Source: Sphingomonadaceae bacterium (GTDB taxonomy: Bacteria; Pseudomonadota; Alphaproteobacteria; Sphingomonadales; Sphingomonadaceae). Taken from it: a stretch of DNA of 64,000 nucleotides. The notes under the pieces are model-generated. The model was given only the letters and a program-made list of their open reading frames with translations, was not told the DNA's origin and did not search any database. This document shows, piece after piece, positions 10,950-16,805 of the stretch; the stretch's first letter is position 1, and each line of letters starts with the position of its first letter. A program made the translations under genes and the position numbers. The stretch covers positions 96,873 through 160,872 of the forward strand of contig JADZEQ010000005.1 of NCBI GenBank assembly GCA_020850455.1. Direction: 5' to 3'.

Positions 10950-12248
10950 TCAGCCAACGCTGCCCAATTCGCCCGATACCAGCCGGGCGATCAGGCGGCG
11001 GACCCCGGTCAAGCGTGCGCCATGGTGGATGGCGCGGTCGCGCAAAAAGGGCAAAATCGCCCCGTCGGATTGATACATTGGCGTCAAAATGCGGCTGAGT
11101 GCCTGATAGAGGCGGACATGGTCTTGCCGCCAATATTGGTAGAGGCGGACAATGTCGCCCACCGCATCCGCCGTATCAACCGCGCGTGCCAGCGCCAACG
11201 CATCCATCAACGCCATGTTGGCGCCCTGACCCAATTGTGGACTGGTCGCATGCCATGCATCACCCAGATGGATGATGCGTCGGTGGGTTGCTGCTTTGCC
11301 GGTACGATGCCGATAGGTGGCGAGCGTCAGTGCATCAAAATCGGCCACTTGGTCGACAAAGGGCGCGGCATCGGGCCAGAGTTCGCAAAAGGCCGCGCGC
11401 CATGGTGCAATGCTGGCTGCCCTTGTTGCGGCGGCATCCTTTATCCGCACGCTCCAGAACAAGGCTGCGCCGGGATTGCCGGTTGCCGGATTGCGCCCGA
11501 TCGGCAGGATACCCGCCATTTTATGGCCAGCAAAATAGCGTTGTTCCAGCGCGTCGGGCAAAATTGTCGAACCGTCGGGCACATCGACACTGGTCCAATA
11601 GGCACCATAAGGGAGAATATGGTTCTTCCCGCGCGTCAGCGGGCCATTGGCCCCGCTCGCGTCGATCAGCAGATCAAATCGCCCGCCCGTCGTGCCATCG
11701 GCAAAGCATGGCCGGGCCGCATCGCCATCCACCGTCGCATCGCACAATATTTTATCGCATAATATGGGGATGGCTGCACTGTGCACCGCCGCGAACAGGA
11801 CATCGAACAGGCTGCTGCGGTGGATGCCGAGCGCATATTTGCCCGCCCCCAAGCCGGCATATTCCATGTCGAGCGCGCGCAGCCCATTGGCGACGTTCCA
11901 GCCAATCAGCCGGGAAACGGGGGTGGCAAGCGGGACGATTGCTTCGAGCAGGCCAAGCTTTGCCAAGACCCGTTGGCCCGTCGGCTGGATCAGCAGCCCC
12001 GAACCCACCGGGCGCGGCGCGTCAAATTGTTCAAAAATCGTGACCCTGTGCCCTGCGCGCGCCAAAAATAGCGCGGCGGCCATGCCGCCCGGCCCGCAGC
12101 CGACAATCGCGATATCCTGTGGTTGCAGCAATATAGTCCCCCCTTTGCCCGATGGGTTGCAACTGCTTAGCGGGGCATTCGCCCGCGCGCACGTCCAATT
12201 GCCCATGCCGCTGGCGGCGCGGGGGTTGGCCAAATGGCACATTACCAA
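10950..12248 (-). CDS. FAD-dependent monooxygenase (UbiH / salicylate-hydroxylase type)
   Basis: Rossmann motif IAIVGCGPGGMAAALFLARAGHRVTIFE and LGDAWHATSPQLGQGANMALMDA. The ORF-track start is probably too far upstream. TTG at 12131, preceded by AAGGGGGG, would place the GxGxxG about 10 aa from the N-terminus. Confidence 0.75.
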   Translation of the reverse strand: MVMCHLANPRAASGMGNWTCARANAPLSSCNPSGKGGTILLQPQDIAIVGCGPGGMAAALFLARAGHRVTIFEQFDAPRPVGSGLLIQPTGQRVLAKLGLLEAIVPLATPVSRLIGWNVANGLRALDMEYAGLGAGKYALGIHRSSLFDVLFAAVHSAAIPILCDKILCDATVDGDAARPCFADGTTGGRFDLLIDASGANGPLTRGKNHILPYGAYWTSVDVPDGSTILPDALEQRYFAGHKMAGILPIGRNPATGNPGAALFWSVRIKDAAATRAASIAPWRAAFCELWPDAAPFVDQVADFDALTLATYRHRTGKAATHRRIIHLGDAWHATSPQLGQGANMALMDALALARAVDTADAVGDIVRLYQYWRQDHVRLYQALSRILTPMYQSDGAILPFLRDRAIHHGARLTGVRRLIARLVSGELGSVG

Positions 12249-12330
12249 AAGTTCATTTGGGTGCGGGATGGCGCGGGCTTAGCGTCCCCGGCGTCCGCGT
12301 GATTGCGGGCGTTTTTCGTGGGAGGCGACG

Positions 12331-12492
12331 TTGGAAAAATCGCAATTTGGTGGTGCACTGGCGCTCGATGATGTGCCGCAAATCGGCGCGGTGGCGGCGC
12401 ATGGCGCGCATTATAGCCAGACGCAAGCGGGTGGGAATACGATTTTCGACGTGGTGGTCACCATCGTCGTCCTCAACCATCCGGGTAGCTGA
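12331..12492 (+). CDS. Unannotated small ORF, 53 codons (below the ORF-track cutoff)
   Basis: TTG at 12331 with GGGAGG 5 nt upstream. Translation: LEKSQFGGALALDDVPQIGAVAAHGAHYSQTQAGGNTIFDVVVTIVVLNHPGS. Third-position G+C by hand count is 34/53. It ends 5 nt before the next gene. The opposite-strand ORF (12253..12480) is Arg-rich and looks like a shadow ORF. Confidence 0.35.
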   Translation: MEKSQFGGALALDDVPQIGAVAAHGAHYSQTQAGGNTIFDVVVTIVVLNHPGS

Positions 12493-12497
12493 AGCGG

Positions 12498-13484
12498 ATG
12501 ATCATTCCGCCGTCGCTGGCGCAATATTTCGCCGATCGCGGCGGGGATGATGCGCGCGCGGCGGCGGCAGCCATGGCCATGGGCGCGTGGCGCGCGCGCG
12601 ATGATGTGCGCACCATCGACGCATTGCTGGCCCGCTGGGCACAGTGCCCGCCCCAAGACCCCGCCGCGCTACAAGCCGCGCTGGCCCCGCATATATATGA
12701 TCGGGGCTGGGTCGATGCGCTGCTGGCATCGGCGGTTGACCTGTTGCGCGCCGACCCGCTCAACGCGTTGCCCTGCACCATTTTGCCGGGGCCGTTGCTG
12801 CCGGGCCTCCTCCTCCTCAGCCATGCGGGCGTCACGATGACCTTGCATCTTGTCGATGCGATGGCGCTGACCGCGTCTGCCGAGGCAATGGAGGATGCCA
12901 ATCTGGTGTTTGACGGGGGGTTGAGCGCCATCGTCCATCTTGCGGGTGGGGCAATATCCTATCGCCGTGCCCAACTTGGTGCGGGTGATGGCGCAGATTG
13001 TTGCAACGCCAAAGTCAGCCCGCCGTTGCTGTTCTTTGCGGGCGATATAATCGCCATGGACGGTGCGCGCGATGCGATCAGCATCATCGGCGCGGCATGC
13101 GATGCCTTGATGCTGCGCATTTCGATGGGGACGCCGGCACCGGGCAGCCGCCATTTCGCCCACCGATTGTCCGATGGCGCGTGCGTGGCGCAGCTATGCG
13201 GTGATGGTGCGGCTTCGCGGCTGCTCATCCTGCTGCAATATCTGGGCGCGCGGCGTGCGGTCATCGACGATGCGGCGATGTTGCTGTTGCGGCAATATAT
13301 GGGCGATGCCGAACCGCAATTGCGTTGGGCGGCGGCGCGGATCGCCATTGCGCATGATCCATCCGCCATGCGCGGGGCGATTGCCGATATGGCGGCTGGC
13401 GATGGGGATGATGCGGTGCGCCGTGCGGCGACGGCGACCTTGCCGCTGATCGATGCCGCATTATCGGCGCGGCAGGCGGCCTGA
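12498..13484 (+). CDS. Hypothetical protein: beta-rich domain plus C-terminal HEAT/PBS-lyase-like helices, 328 aa
   Basis: ORF track. C-terminal RWAAARIAIAHDPSAMRGAIADMAAGDGDDAVRRAATATL resembles a HEAT_PBS repeat. It appears paralogous to the next gene but lacks that gene's His cluster. Confidence 0.55.
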   Translation: MIIPPSLAQYFADRGGDDARAAAAAMAMGAWRARDDVRTIDALLARWAQCPPQDPAALQAALAPHIYDRGWVDALLASAVDLLRADPLNALPCTILPGPLLPGLLLLSHAGVTMTLHLVDAMALTASAEAMEDANLVFDGGLSAIVHLAGGAISYRRAQLGAGDGADCCNAKVSPPLLFFAGDIIAMDGARDAISIIGAACDALMLRISMGTPAPGSRHFAHRLSDGACVAQLCGDGAASRLLILLQYLGARRAVIDDAAMLLLRQYMGDAEPQLRWAAARIAIAHDPSAMRGAIADMAAGDGDDAVRRAATATLPLIDAALSARQAA

Positions 13485-14394
13485 CGTGGCGCGCGAACTG
13501 GGCCATGCCGATGTGGCGGACACTGCCGATCTTGCCGAAGTTGTCGACGCCATCGACCATTATTCGGGTGATCTGGGGACCGGGGAAGGGGCGGATTTTG
13601 CCGGTCATTGGCTGGGCAAGCTATATGGCAATCAGGATTTTCTCTTTGCGCATATCCTCAACATTCTAAAAGACAGGGGGGCGGCAGAGGCGGCCCGCAA
13701 TGGTTATGGCGCGCAGGTGCTGATGCTCCATCGGCAGGCGGGGCGTTATTTCATGCGCGTCAATTTCTGGCCCGCCGCCGATGACCCGGTGCTGCTGGCC
13801 AGCGGGGCGAGCCATTATGCCTATCACGAACCGCATGACCATAATTTCAGCTTTGTCACGCTCGGCTATCATGGGCCGGGCTATCGCAGTCGCTGGTTCA
13901 CTTATGAAAATGGCGCGGTGGCGGGCTATGCGGGGGAGGATGTGGCGCTCAACCCGAGTGAAGAAGGGGGACTGACCCCGGGGCGCATCCTCCACTATCG
14001 GCGCAGCGTCGATGTCCATGAACAATTGCCCCCCGACGCGCTGTCGGTCAGCATCAATATAGTGGCGGAGGATGCGGCGACCCCGTGGCGCGACCAATAT
14101 TTTTTTGATCTGGGGGCGGAACGCATCGCCGCGCTGCCGACGATCACCCAAGGTGAAATCGCCTTGCGCATGGCGGCAATTTTGGGGGAGGATGGGCGCG
14201 ATCTGGCGCATGAATTTGCCCGCCACCACCCATCGCACCGTATGCGTTGGCAGGCGTGGCGCGCGCTGGGCGCGGCGACTGAGGGGGCCGATCGTATCGC
14301 GCTGTTTGAACGGGCGAGTGGGGATGCATCCGCGCTGGTGCGCGGTGCGGCCGGGGCGATGTTGCGGTGCATAGAGGATGCGGCAATAGTTTAG
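13453..14394 (+). CDS. Hypothetical cupin-like protein with C-terminal HEAT-like helices (probable start GTG 13486)
   Basis: His-rich core YAYHEPHDHNFSFVTLGYHGPGY ... ILHYRRSVDVHEQ. C-terminal RWQAWRALGAATEGADRIALFERASGDASALVRGAAGAML. GTG 13486 lies 1 nt after the upstream stop (TGA 13482-13484). Confidence 0.55.
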   Translation: MPHYRRGRRPDVARELGHADVADTADLAEVVDAIDHYSGDLGTGEGADFAGHWLGKLYGNQDFLFAHILNILKDRGAAEAARNGYGAQVLMLHRQAGRYFMRVNFWPAADDPVLLASGASHYAYHEPHDHNFSFVTLGYHGPGYRSRWFTYENGAVAGYAGEDVALNPSEEGGLTPGRILHYRRSVDVHEQLPPDALSVSINIVAEDAATPWRDQYFFDLGAERIAALPTITQGEIALRMAAILGEDGRDLAHEFARHHPSHRMRWQAWRALGAATEGADRIALFERASGDASALVRGAAGAMLRCIEDAAIV

Positions 14395-14403
14395 GAAACG
14401 GCG

Positions 14404-15126
14404 ATGATCGCATTGTGCATGGCGGATCTGGTGCAGGGGCGCGAACTGGCGGCGGCGCTGACGATGGCGGGACATTTGACCAAGCTGATGCCCGCTTGCC
14501 CCGTACGGATCGATGATCATTATGACGCGATTATCGCCGAATATGCCGGACGACAGGCGGGGCTGGATGCACGGGTGCGTGGCTGGCGCGCCGTCGCGGG
14601 CGGGCGGGTGCTGCTCTGCCTGCTCCGCCGTGACAGCATGGCCGCGCGGGTCTGCGCGCTCAACGCCGGGGCGGATGATGTCATCGCCACACCGCCGCGC
14701 GGATCTGCCCTAAAGGGCGCGGGCGGCGAACTGGTGGCGCGGACGGCGGCATTGCTGCGCCGGGCGGGTGGACGCGCGCATATGCTTGCTTGCGATGACC
14801 TCCACATCGATCTGGTCGCCCGTGCGGTGCGCCGCGCCGACCACCGCATCCCCATGCCGCCGCGCGAATTTGACCTGCTCGCCCGGCTGGCGCGCACGCC
14901 GGACCAGCCGGTGGCGCGGGCCGACCTCCTTAAAACCGTATGGCGGATCACTTTCGACCCCGGCACCAACCGCGTCGATGTCCATGTAGCGCGGCTGCGC
15001 CAGCGGATTGACGCGCCCTTTGCCAACCGCCCCAGCCCGCACGTCATGCTGCGCACCTGCAAGGGGGTGGGTTATGCGCTGGTCAGCCGTGCGGGGGCGG
15101 CGATTCCAGCTTTTGCGATGCAGTAA
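14404..15126 (+). CDS. OmpR/PhoB-family winged-helix regulator with degenerate (pseudo-)receiver domain
   Basis: C-terminal wHTH: LHIDLVARAVRRADHRIPMPPREFDLLARLARTPDQPVARADLLKTVWRITFDPGTNRVDVHVARLRQRI...GVGYAL. In the N-terminal receiver-like part, the acceptor region reads YDAIIAEYAG (Glu where Asp is expected), the beta4 end reads LLCLLRRDS (no Thr/Ser) and the beta5 end reads ADDVIATPP (no Lys). Confidence 0.7.
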   Translation: MIALCMADLVQGRELAAALTMAGHLTKLMPACPVRIDDHYDAIIAEYAGRQAGLDARVRGWRAVAGGRVLLCLLRRDSMAARVCALNAGADDVIATPPRGSALKGAGGELVARTAALLRRAGGRAHMLACDDLHIDLVARAVRRADHRIPMPPREFDLLARLARTPDQPVARADLLKTVWRITFDPGTNRVDVHVARLRQRIDAPFANRPSPHVMLRTCKGVGYALVSRAGAAIPAFAMQ

Positions 15127-15251: not shown

Positions 15252-15374
15252 ATGGCCGAGAATAAGGATTTTGAAGCGGCGGCGGCAACCTATGCGGGCT
15301 TTGTGTCCAAGGGGCGTGTCGCGGTGATCGTTGCTGCTTTGGCAGCTTTGCTCGTCATCTTTTTGATCAGCTAA
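15252..15374 (+). CDS. Small membrane protein, 40 aa (resembles the aa3-type cytochrome oxidase subunit IV-like family often found upstream of pntA)
   Basis: MAENKDFEAAAATYAGFVSKGRVAVIVAALAALLVIFLIS. One C-terminal TM helix. It ends 6 nt before the pntAA ATG. Below the ORF-track size cutoff. The family call is from memory. Confidence 0.5.
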   Translation: MAENKDFEAAAATYAGFVSKGRVAVIVAALAALLVIFLIS

Positions 15375-15380
15375 GCCAAG

Positions 15381-16511
15381 ATGGCGACACGCATCGCAGC
15401 GCTGGCTGAAAGCGCGGCCGGGGAAAATCGCGTCGCGATTAGCCCCGAAACGGTCAAGAAATATATCGCGCTGGGTGCCGAGGTTGCGGTGGAAAGCGGT
15501 GCAGGGGTGCGCGCAGGCGTTGCCGATGCCGATTATACGGCGGCGGGGGCGAGCGTTGGCAAGCGCGCCGATGTGCTGAAAGGCGCGGCCATCATCCTGT
15601 GCGTCGCACCGCCTGAGGCGAAATCGATAAAGGGTGCGGGCGAAGGGGCATGGCTGGTCGGCGCGCTCAACCCCTTTGGCGCGCGCGACACGATTGCCGA
15701 TTATGCCAAGGCCGGGCTGGAAGCGCTGGCGATGGAATGGATGCCGCGCATCACCCGCGCGCAGTCGATGGATATATTGTCGAGCCAGTCGAATCTGGCG
15801 GGTTACAAGGCGGTGTTGATGGCGGCAGACGCCTATGGCCGCGCCTTTCCCATGATGATGACGGCGGCGGGCACGATTACCGCGGCCAAGGCCTTTGTCA
15901 TGGGGGTGGGCGTTGCCGGTTTGCAGGCGATTGCCACCGCGCGGCGGCTGGGCGCGCAGGTTTCGGCAACCGATGTCCGTTCGGCGACCCGCGAACAGAT
16001 TATGTCGCTGGGTGCCAAGCCGGTTTTTGTCGAAAGCGTCGCGGGCATAGAGGGGGAGGGCGCGGGTGGTTACGCCAGCGAAATGTCCGCCGAATATCAG
16101 GCGGCGCAGGCCGAACTCGTCTCTGGCCATATTGCCAAGCAGGACATCGTCATCACCACCGCGCTGATACCGGGGCGGCCCGCGCCGCGCCTCATTTCCG
16201 ATGCGCAATTGGCAACGATGCGCGCAGGCAGCGTCATCGTCGATCTGGCGGCGGAAAGCGGCGGCAATGTCGAAGGGGTAGTGGCCGGTGAACGCGTTGT
16301 AAAACATGGCGTTACCATCATCGGCGTGAAAAATATCACCTCTTTGATGGCCGCCGACGCCTCCGCATTATTCGCGCGCAACCTGTATAATTTCCTGTCG
16401 GCTTTCTGGGACAAGGAAAAGGGTGCGCCGGTGCTCGACGATGAAATCGGCAACGCCATCCGCCTGACACAGGGCGGCAAAATTGTGCATGAACGGTTGG
16501 CAGGGGGCTGA
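15381..16511 (+). CDS. pntAA: NAD(P) transhydrogenase subunit alpha part 1
   Basis: 376 aa. Alanine dehydrogenase/PNT fold. NAD site VMGVGVAGLQAIATARRLGAQV. Followed by pntAB and pntB. Confidence 0.95.
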   Translation: MATRIAALAESAAGENRVAISPETVKKYIALGAEVAVESGAGVRAGVADADYTAAGASVGKRADVLKGAAIILCVAPPEAKSIKGAGEGAWLVGALNPFGARDTIADYAKAGLEALAMEWMPRITRAQSMDILSSQSNLAGYKAVLMAADAYGRAFPMMMTAAGTITAAKAFVMGVGVAGLQAIATARRLGAQVSATDVRSATREQIMSLGAKPVFVESVAGIEGEGAGGYASEMSAEYQAAQAELVSGHIAKQDIVITTALIPGRPAPRLISDAQLATMRAGSVIVDLAAESGGNVEGVVAGERVVKHGVTIIGVKNITSLMAADASALFARNLYNFLSAFWDKEKGAPVLDDEIGNAIRLTQGGKIVHERLAGG

Positions 16512-16514
16512 GCC

Positions 16515-16805
16515 ATGGACTTTATCTCTATCCTATCCATCTTCGTGCTGGCCTGTTTTGTCGGCTATTATGTCGTCTGGTCGGTGACGCCCGCGCTGCA
16601 CACGCCGCTGATGGCGGTCACCAACGCGATTTCGAGCGTGATTATCGTCGGCGCGCTGGTCGCCGCGACGACCGGCATGGCCAGCCATATTTCGGCGGCG
16701 CGCTGGTTGGGGCTGATTGCGGTCGTGCTCGCCAGTATCAATATTTTCGGCGGCTTTGCCGTCACCGAACGCATGCTCGCCATGTATAAGAAAAAGGATA
16801 AGTGA
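16515..16805 (+). CDS. pntAB: NAD(P) transhydrogenase subunit alpha part 2 (membrane)
   Basis: 96 aa with three hydrophobic helices and a C-terminal [10 protein letters not shown]. Confidence 0.9.

Follow-up and report, generated by a model that had tools for sequence, protein, structure and literature searches.

What do four tightly packed genes do in a sphingomonad if none of them belongs to a known enzyme family and one is only 53 codons long? The question is raised by a 64,000-nucleotide (nt) stretch of the genome of a Sphingomonadaceae bacterium (GenBank assembly GCA_020850455.1, contig JADZEQ010000005.1, positions 96,873 to 160,872 of the forward strand), which is referred to below as the window. 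Within it, positions 12331 to 15126 carry a small open reading frame (ORF), here called S, two genes (A and B) for proteins of about 300 amino acids (aa), and a regulator gene (R). A preliminary description, made from the letters of the window, had tentatively read this cassette as a small peptide acted on or sensed by a metal-dependent cupin heterodimer, with a dedicated phosphorylation-independent regulator. The comparisons described here indicate that the cassette is a real module of three to four genes, which reaches well beyond the window and is both uncharacterised and mis-annotated. It comprises a conserved micro-protein, a pair of presumed enzyme and pseudo-enzyme paralogues, and an orphan regulator without phosphorylation control. 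The structural guesses of the preliminary description were largely right; its functional reading is treated here as a hypothesis. The features of the cassette, with positions in the window, are the following.

12331-12492, plus strand: S, small ORF of 53 codons with a TTG start
12498-13484, plus strand: A, 328 aa; cupin paralogue free of a metal site, with a HEAT-like tail
13486-14394, plus strand: B, 302 aa from a GTG start; three-His cupin with a HEAT-like C-terminal domain and a probable metal centre
14404-15126, plus strand: R, 240 aa; OmpR/PhoB-type winged-helix regulator with a pseudo-receiver
12320-12325, plus strand: GGGAGG, Shine-Dalgarno sequence of S, 5 nt before TTG 12331
12238-12283, plus strand: conserved upstream element CACATTACCAAAAGTTCATTTGGGTG...GCTTAGC, candidate promoter/operator of the module

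The packing of the four plus-strand genes had been described correctly, and gaps of 5 nt between S and A, 1 nt between A and B and 9 nt between B and R were reproduced from the ORFs. The longest frame of B opens at 13453, ahead of GTG 13486; the GTG corresponds in alignments to the Met of homologues, and B is placed 1 nt after A by gene callers.

Relatives of B were found in at least 563 species-representative genomes, and in an exhaustive profile search the family amounted to 928 clusters at 50 % identity. Eighty loci, all from Sphingomonadales, were examined, and the neighbourhood counts given below were taken over these 80 loci. B was detected in 70 of 201 sampled genomes of the family and in 47 of 105 genera, values that are lower bounds because the first-look filter scored only part of the candidates. 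Among same-genus relatives 17 of 24 carried B. Searches of 16 genomes of the order's other families and of about 298 further alphaproteobacterial genomes did not detect it. B is usually present in one copy per genome and at syntenic positions. The order S-A-B was intact in essentially every locus examined, whatever the neighbours, and R accompanied the trio in about half of them; co-conservation, which the preliminary description had named as a check, was thus observed. By these comparisons the module is vertically inherited and specific to Sphingomonadaceae. Literature searches found no description of it. Sphingomonadales-specific hypothetical proteins, including those of the adjacent genes Saro_2036 and Saro_2037, have been listed (Gupta and Mok 2007, PMC2241609), and these two might correspond to A and B.

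The proposal that the small ORF is a real gene was borne out. In metagenomic relatives S has the same 53 codons and is 96-98 % identical from residue 7 on, whereas A and B of the same relatives are 73-76 % and 84 % identical, respectively. Between the window and one relative (locus L029), 11 codon changes are synonymous and 7 non-synonymous, with the amino acid changes clustered almost entirely in codons 1-6. The GGGAGG sequence, which had been noticed 5 nt before TTG 12331, is kept in relatives together with its spacing, and the start codon at the same position there is ATG or GTG. An ORF of 46-50 codons lies directly 5' of the A homologue in 13 of 14 same-genus loci, with the consensus M.LP.IDI.ALPLLDTAVGLFGSL...SGPSVFE..VT..LI.YD. 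In 80 loci of other genera, about 76 of which could be assessed, an S homologue precedes A in 69; in the loci without one, upstream DNA is missing or the ORF was missed by the search patterns. The genera with S include Sphingomonas, Stakelama, Novosphingobium, Altererythrobacter, Aurantiacibacter, Allosphingosinicella, Sphingorhabdus and Blastomonas. Gene callers independently place a 42-53-aa gene before A in four genera, and a profile of the S family collected 535 database clusters, all from sphingomonads and all named 'hypothetical protein'. The ORF had been called unannotated, which holds locally but not in relatives, where gene callers find it and RefSeq lists its homologues as hypothetical proteins. 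These observations indicate that S is a real gene under purifying selection and that, among close relatives, it is more conserved than A or B.

Across the family S is about 42-56 aa long. Its N-terminal half is conserved and rather acidic, with the pattern ...IDL..LP.L.T.VG..G... and a conserved ...P.L...G motif. A short linker, either acidic or Gly-rich, leads over to the C-terminal part, a hydrophobic stretch that is clade-specific, has 10-15 residues and abounds in the beta-branched residues Val, Ile and Thr; the protein usually terminates in Tyr-Asp/Glu. Divergence is 0.59 in the N-terminal and 0.75 in the C-terminal half, and near-invariance within the family is limited to Leu18 and Gly25. 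S had no match in Pfam or NCBIfam, and no signal peptide was found in it. A leader-peptide or attenuator reading of S was rejected because purifying selection acts on the entire amino acid sequence, which is also conserved from genus to genus. A type I toxin or membrane peptide is unlikely, the hydrophobic stretch being 10-15 residues long, rich in beta-branched residues and flanked by acidic ones. Some S clades carry a Gly-Gly or an EVGG-x-x-Cys motif ahead of the hydrophobic part: in the Allosphingosinicella type (e.g. L066, L070, L080, L103 and L117) a conserved KQKEVGG-x-x-C is combined with a purely hydrophobic tail; in other clades an acidic residue lies close to where this Cys would be.

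The structural model of B (AlphaFold2, 50 sequences) is a confident one, with a predicted local distance difference test score (pLDDT) of 94.4 and a predicted TM-score (pTM) of 0.87. It consists of helices (residues 16-71), a beta core (78-216) and five C-terminal helices (222-301). The best fold matches in the PDB are mercaptosuccinate dioxygenase (8vni), a Ralstonia homologue of cysteine dioxygenase (CDO; 4qma), mammalian CDOs and 3-mercaptopropionate dioxygenases, with E values of 2e-7 to 1e-5 and TM-scores on the target of 0.6-0.65. The residues invariant in the 50 sequences include H117, D118, H119, N120, Y171, D176, H178 and Q180. A His cluster pointed out earlier (YHEPHDHNFSF ... HYRRSVDVHEQ) is indeed present in the second protein and contains the invariant residues of the family. 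The pattern HxH...H, without a Glu in cupin motif 1, is that of three-His cupins and resembles the three-His iron site of the thiol dioxygenases; the spacing H117-x-H119...H178 resembles that of CDO. H117, H119 and H178 would make up a three-His metal site, the metal probably being Fe(II).

At the sequence level no relation to the thiol dioxygenases was detectable. When the window's genome and 30 relatives were searched in six frames with the CDO_I model (PF05995), no match was obtained (the control was found in B. subtilis), and the genus showed no canonical CDO_I gene. With the B alignment as a profile, PDB sequences returned chance hits only, and no Pfam or NCBIfam model matched B at cut-off. 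Because neither B nor A matches CDO_I and PDB sequences gave only chance hits, the likeness to thiol dioxygenases is one of fold and ligand pattern and not of family membership. RefSeq and UniRef name homologues of B 'transposase' (e.g. WP_237836616.1, WP_317227862.1 and WP_179407011.1); no transposase model in Pfam or NCBIfam matches B. In one 901-aa database representative (P0130) the first 296 residues correspond to full B, and this entry may represent B fused to, or read through into, the gene downstream.

The model of A, derived from 18 sequences (pLDDT 76.5), has the same three-part order as that of B: N-terminal helices, which make the N-terminal domain all-helical, a cupin-like beta-sandwich and C-terminal HEAT-like helices. 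Its best PDB fold matches are the thiol dioxygenases 4tlf and 4qm9 (E from 4e-5). Taken together, the best structural matches of A and B are thiol dioxygenases (6e87, 4z82, 4qma, 4tlf, 6xb9, 8vni), which they match over the N-terminal helices and the cupin barrel, and a beta-barrel core as in the cupin superfamily is predicted for both. In sequence, A and B align only over the last ~100 columns, which comprise the final strands and the HEAT-like helices (hhalign E 1e-4, probability 56 %); the C-terminal helix pairs quoted in the preliminary description align by BLASTP (E 0.005). Pfam HEAT_2 (PF13646) scores were 14.5 bits for A (E 0.045) and 20.3 bits for B (E 6.7e-4), under the gathering cut-off of 27.7, and the helical-hairpin architecture of the tail is seen in both models. 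Like HEAT/PBS-lyase repeats, the helix pairs carry a D-x-x-x-VR-x-AA-type motif; unlike in HEAT/PBS-lyase proteins, the scores are below cut-off and there are only about two repeats, which are fused to a cupin. This C-terminal domain of about 80 residues also sets A and B apart from thiol dioxygenases, as does the combination of a catalytic/non-catalytic pair with a micro-protein. According to the models, A and B are structural paralogues, each with N-terminal helices, a CDO-like cupin and a HEAT-like tail. The earlier view of two diverged paralogues, for which structural comparison had been set as the test, is thus in agreement with the shared fold matches and the aligning tails, and the view that each has a beta-rich centre followed by a HEAT/PBS-lyase-like helix pair agrees with the modelled cupin cores and the sub-threshold HEAT_2 hits.

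What distinguishes the two paralogues is the metal site. No His is conserved in A, neither among 18 nor among 73 members, and all three putative ligands of B are lacking, whereas in B these are invariant in 50 sequences. It had been suggested that the second protein alone keeps a metal-type His site, and this was found to be so; since B alone keeps it, A is plausible as a non-catalytic partner. No Pfam or NCBIfam model matched A at cut-off. A lies 5' of B in 79 of the 80 loci, and the genes, which are 1 nt apart here, overlap by 13 nt in Sphingomonas, Novosphingobium, Altererythrobacter and Allosphingosinicella; judged by this arrangement, A and B are translationally coupled. In the main Sphingopyxis clade (L016-L028) A starts with a conserved SRHDH(Y/F)PRAD, reminiscent of PHDHNF, the metal motif of B. 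Neither the A of the window nor that of other genera has it, and it might be a clade-specific tail reaching the B site.

R matched Trans_reg_C with 62.8 bits (cut-off 26.2), and its C-terminal winged helix aligns to MtrA, PrrA and RegX3. No Pfam Response_reg hit was obtained with R, and the alignment to MtrA and PrrA begins only at about residue 58, in the last part of the receiver. Leu and Thr stand where the receiver Thr and Lys belong, the Thr-for-Lys being located in GADDVIATPP. In an alignment of 39 R proteins the phospho-acceptor column has E in the R of the window, while the 38 relatives show D, N, S, G or a gap; the acidic pocket is not kept, and the DNA-binding domain is highly conserved. 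The description of R as an OmpR-type regulator with a dead receiver was confirmed by the domain searches, and the degeneracy is family-wide. As far as the alignment tells, the receiver of R cannot be a normal phospho-acceptor. GlnR is an atypical, phosphorylation-independent regulator of the OmpR/PhoB family, and AmiC-AmiR exemplifies control by a partner protein. Like GlnR-type regulators, R joins a typical winged helix to a receiver-like domain without the Asp/Thr/Lys set and has no kinase gene nearby; unlike them, it forms a family of its own, linked to S-A-B in Sphingomonadaceae. AmiC-AmiR serves here only as an analogy for control of R by a partner protein.

R is located directly 3' of B in 38 of the 80 loci. 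In the lepA-type Sphingopyxis loci the R orthologue is unlinked, and in one such genome (G006) about 400 kb separate it from the trio; its neighbours there are genes for an acyl-CoA ligase, a DsbA-like protein and a hydratase. The word 'dedicated' in the preliminary description was too strong, as most Sphingopyxis keep the R orthologue about 400 kb away, next to acyl-CoA genes. Because of this unlinked position in most Sphingopyxis, R is better regarded, on the comparative evidence, as an ancestral, co-occurring partner of the trio that is not strictly dedicated to it.

The segment 12238-12283 upstream of S is nearly identical in close relatives whose flanking DNA otherwise does not align. A related bipartite motif, TTAC-N4-5-(G/T)T.AA followed by TAGC about 22 nt further on, was found 70-99 nt 5' of S in Sphingomonas, Sphingopyxis and Novosphingobium loci. 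The strict form of the pattern occurred in 19 of 44 upstream regions, as compared with 0.05 in shuffled sequences, and the motif is present with and without an adjacent R. Scans of the cassette found no Rfam RNA element, and neither a terminator nor a convincing sigma-70 promoter was found inside or just after it.

The genes around the module vary. A tandem pair of 4HBT-type (hot-dog) thioesterase genes, divergent from S, is present in 44 of the 80 loci (e.g. L119 4983-5785, L120 4786-5609 and L121 4883-5738), and is replaced by a gene for a flavin adenine dinucleotide (FAD)-dependent monooxygenase in the clade of the window. An enoyl-CoA hydratase gene follows R in 28 loci, and in two genomes (G022 and G006) R is followed by genes for an acyl-CoA ligase, a DsbA-like isomerase and a hydratase. 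The module also lies beside ruvX/DUF3089 (11 loci), lepA (7 loci; this is the main type in Sphingopyxis) or malate synthase. No kinase, exporter or protease gene was consistently near the trio in this comparison. The preliminary description had recognised no kinase, transporter or known enzyme family in the cassette, and both the absence of Pfam and NCBIfam matches and the lack of a recurring kinase or exporter gene are in line with it.

Taking these observations together, we tentatively favour, at slightly less than even confidence, a scheme in which a catalytic cupin, B, pairs with its pseudo-enzyme paralogue, A, in a heteromer. The three-His metal site of B, probably occupied by Fe(II), would react with or sense O2 or a small ligand, and A would be a scaffold that binds S. 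S is proposed to bind mainly to A because the two diverge in parallel: over 63 loci a mirror-tree analysis gave partial correlations of 0.44 between S and A given B and of 0.10 between S and B given A, which is suggestive, but S and A both evolve fast and the signal may partly reflect that. The conserved N-terminal half of S would act as the recognition element, and the clade-specific hydrophobic C-terminal half would pack on A. Of the roles open to S, that of a tightly bound third subunit or modulator is the likeliest, at not quite an even chance, and appreciably likelier than that of a substrate which is consumed. For the subunit role speak the constraint on S, which among close relatives extends along its whole length and exceeds that on A or B, the lack of an invariant modifiable residue, and the lack of maturation or export genes recurring nearby. 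R would likely be the transcriptional partner of the module, operating without phosphorylation control. Its input, which may be the output of the module, would probably be a ligand or a protein contact, with the HEAT-like tails as candidate docking surfaces, or R might simply control the module promoter. In the ancestral setting the neighbouring genes would have encoded thioesterase, acyl-CoA ligase and enoyl-CoA hydratase.

Besides the reservation about evolutionary rates, several points weigh against this scheme. The equivalence of the B histidines to the ligands of CDO is deduced from the fold match and from the spacing of the residues. B appears to be without the Ser-His-Tyr motif of thiol dioxygenases: read by eye, the strand after H178 is LSVS(I/L)NI, in which the positions expected to hold His and Tyr are taken by Asn and an aliphatic residue. 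Searches of B and three homologues with Pfam CDO_I gave no hit even at E <= 10. As to R, its co-occurrence with B within the genus speaks for the scheme, its profile having found top-class matches (at least 213 bits) in 14 of 16 genomes with B and in 1 of 6 without B (Fisher p = 0.004), but the test was made on 22 related and thus non-independent genomes. Family-wide, the scores of R orthologues and paralogues overlap, and co-occurrence of R and B at that scale was dropped as uninformative. Moreover, the R orthologue stays with the acyl-CoA genes when the trio moves, and therefore R may serve those genes and not the trio. Finally, the position of the S gene, its conserved N-terminal half and its variable C-terminal half would also fit a precursor peptide.

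The last point leads to a reading, unlikely in our estimate but the strongest competitor, in which the module is a system for a peptide that is ribosomally synthesised and then modified post-translationally (RiPP) or a peptide-derived cofactor: S would be the precursor, A would bind its N-terminal 'leader', and B, as an Fe/O2 cupin, would oxidise a residue in or near the variable C-terminal 'core'. MbnB/MbnC and TglH/TglI are pairs of a metal-dependent oxidative enzyme and a peptide-binding partner that go with a small precursor gene, the enzyme being a TIM-barrel multinuclear non-heme iron-dependent oxidative enzyme (MNIO). S-A-B resembles them in having a small gene first, a predicted metal enzyme and a non-catalytic partner that co-varies with S; in 69 loci the would-be precursor gene directly precedes the catalytic/non-catalytic pair. 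The lesser divergence of the N-terminal half of S (0.59, as against 0.75 for the C-terminal half), the tracking of A by S, the Gly-Gly or EVGG-x-x-Cys ahead of the hydrophobic part in some clades, and the fact that the nearest folds of B are oxygenases all point in the same direction. Some of these oxygenases (ADO and PCO) act on protein N-termini. However, B has a cupin fold and A is a paralogue of the enzyme itself, neither of which holds for the Mbn and Tgl pairs. A small gene beside an enzyme pair, as in RiPP clusters, is present, but an invariant modified residue and known maturation genes are not: only Leu and Gly are near-invariant in S, Cys occurs in one clade only, and no tailoring, protease, exporter or immunity gene and no domain of the RiPP recognition element (RRE) type is conserved nearby, the N-terminal domain of A being all-helical. 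A single-copy, vertically inherited, housekeeping-like module, in which the small protein is more constrained among close relatives than the putative enzymes, also argues against it. The fuller chain of events, in which the pseudo-cupin A presents S to B, B modifies or cleaves S, and the product or the complex controls R, would be slightly less likely still.

A role in small-molecule catabolism, which shares the remaining probability with explanations not yet thought of, seems improbable. A-B would then be a heteromeric cupin dioxygenase acting on a thiol, an aromatic or an acyl-CoA-derived metabolite and would be part of the adjacent pathway of thioesterase, CoA-ligase, hydratase and thiolase genes, with R as its regulator and S as an accessory stabilising subunit. 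The gene neighbourhoods would suit it, given the 4HBT pair in 44 of 80 loci, the enoyl-CoA hydratase gene after R in 28 and the acyl-CoA genes beside R in G022 and G006, and the best fold matches are small-molecule thiol dioxygenases. But the trio has moved off the CoA genes several times and is still intact (next to lepA, ruvX, malate synthase or, as here, the FAD monooxygenase and pnt genes), so that the linkage may reflect nothing more than inherited synteny. Pfam CDO_I does not match B, and HEAT-like tails and a conserved micro-protein are not known from catabolic cupin dioxygenases. That B is a transposase and the cassette part of a mobile element has next to no probability. It would account for the RefSeq/UniRef name of B homologues and for a G+C content slightly over the window mean, yet no family model matches, the confident model of B is a cupin with helical repeats, and the gene occurs once per genome, in synteny and always with S and A. 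No terminal repeats, target-site duplications or copy-number variation were seen around B.

The base composition leads to a similar view. The preliminary description had given a G+C content of 68-70 % for the cassette from hand counts, which is too high, since the computed value is 65.0 % (62.0 % for the whole window). This corresponds to the 94th percentile among windows of equal size, the highest value of any other such window being 67.6 %, and S and B have 58 % and 62 %, respectively. The excess is small and inside the range of the window, and composition therefore does not set the cassette apart. A foreign origin was rejected on account of this and of the inherited, syntenic positions.

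In the window the cassette is flanked by the divergent FAD monooxygenase gene on one side and the pnt operon on the other. The longest ORF of the monooxygenase (10950-12248, minus strand) starts at TTG 12248, within the conserved upstream element of S; its true start is probably further downstream, e.g. at Met15, because the Rossmann motif begins near residue 45. Just 5' of pntAA lies a 40-codon ORF, MAENKDFEAAAATYAGFVSKGRVAVIVAALAALLVIFLIS (15252-15374, plus strand), for which a 40-aa gene is predicted at the corresponding site of every close relative examined and no Pfam hit is on record. At two related loci (L035 4345-5565 and L036 4198-5418) pntAA is separated from the pntAB 4TM gene by genes with DUF4160, DUF2442 and NucS_C domains. 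This three-gene insertion resembles a small mobile or toxin-antitoxin-like insertion and is absent from the window, where the corresponding site is at about 16511-16515. The genome of the window (G000) has 2.35 Mb and is 99.98 % complete; most same-genus genomes have 3.6-5.1 Mb, and the window therefore belongs to a reduced-genome Sphingopyxis lineage.

Sphingomonads are abundant in water, in soil, on plants and in bioremediation settings, and the module is present in about half of their genera. The name 'transposase' for B is misleading and could be replaced, for example by 'cupin/HEAT-like domain protein'. What the cassette presents is an uncharacterised combination of a conserved micro-protein, a presumed enzyme/pseudo-enzyme pair of paralogues and an orphan regulator that is not under phosphorylation control. 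Solving it could reveal a new cupin reaction or mode of sensing, and could show how a micro-protein and a pseudo-enzyme work as partners and what signal feeds an atypical response regulator. Should S turn out to be modified by B and to control R, the module would be a cupin-based counterpart, confined to Sphingomonadaceae, of the known peptide-maturation pairs of enzyme and partner protein.

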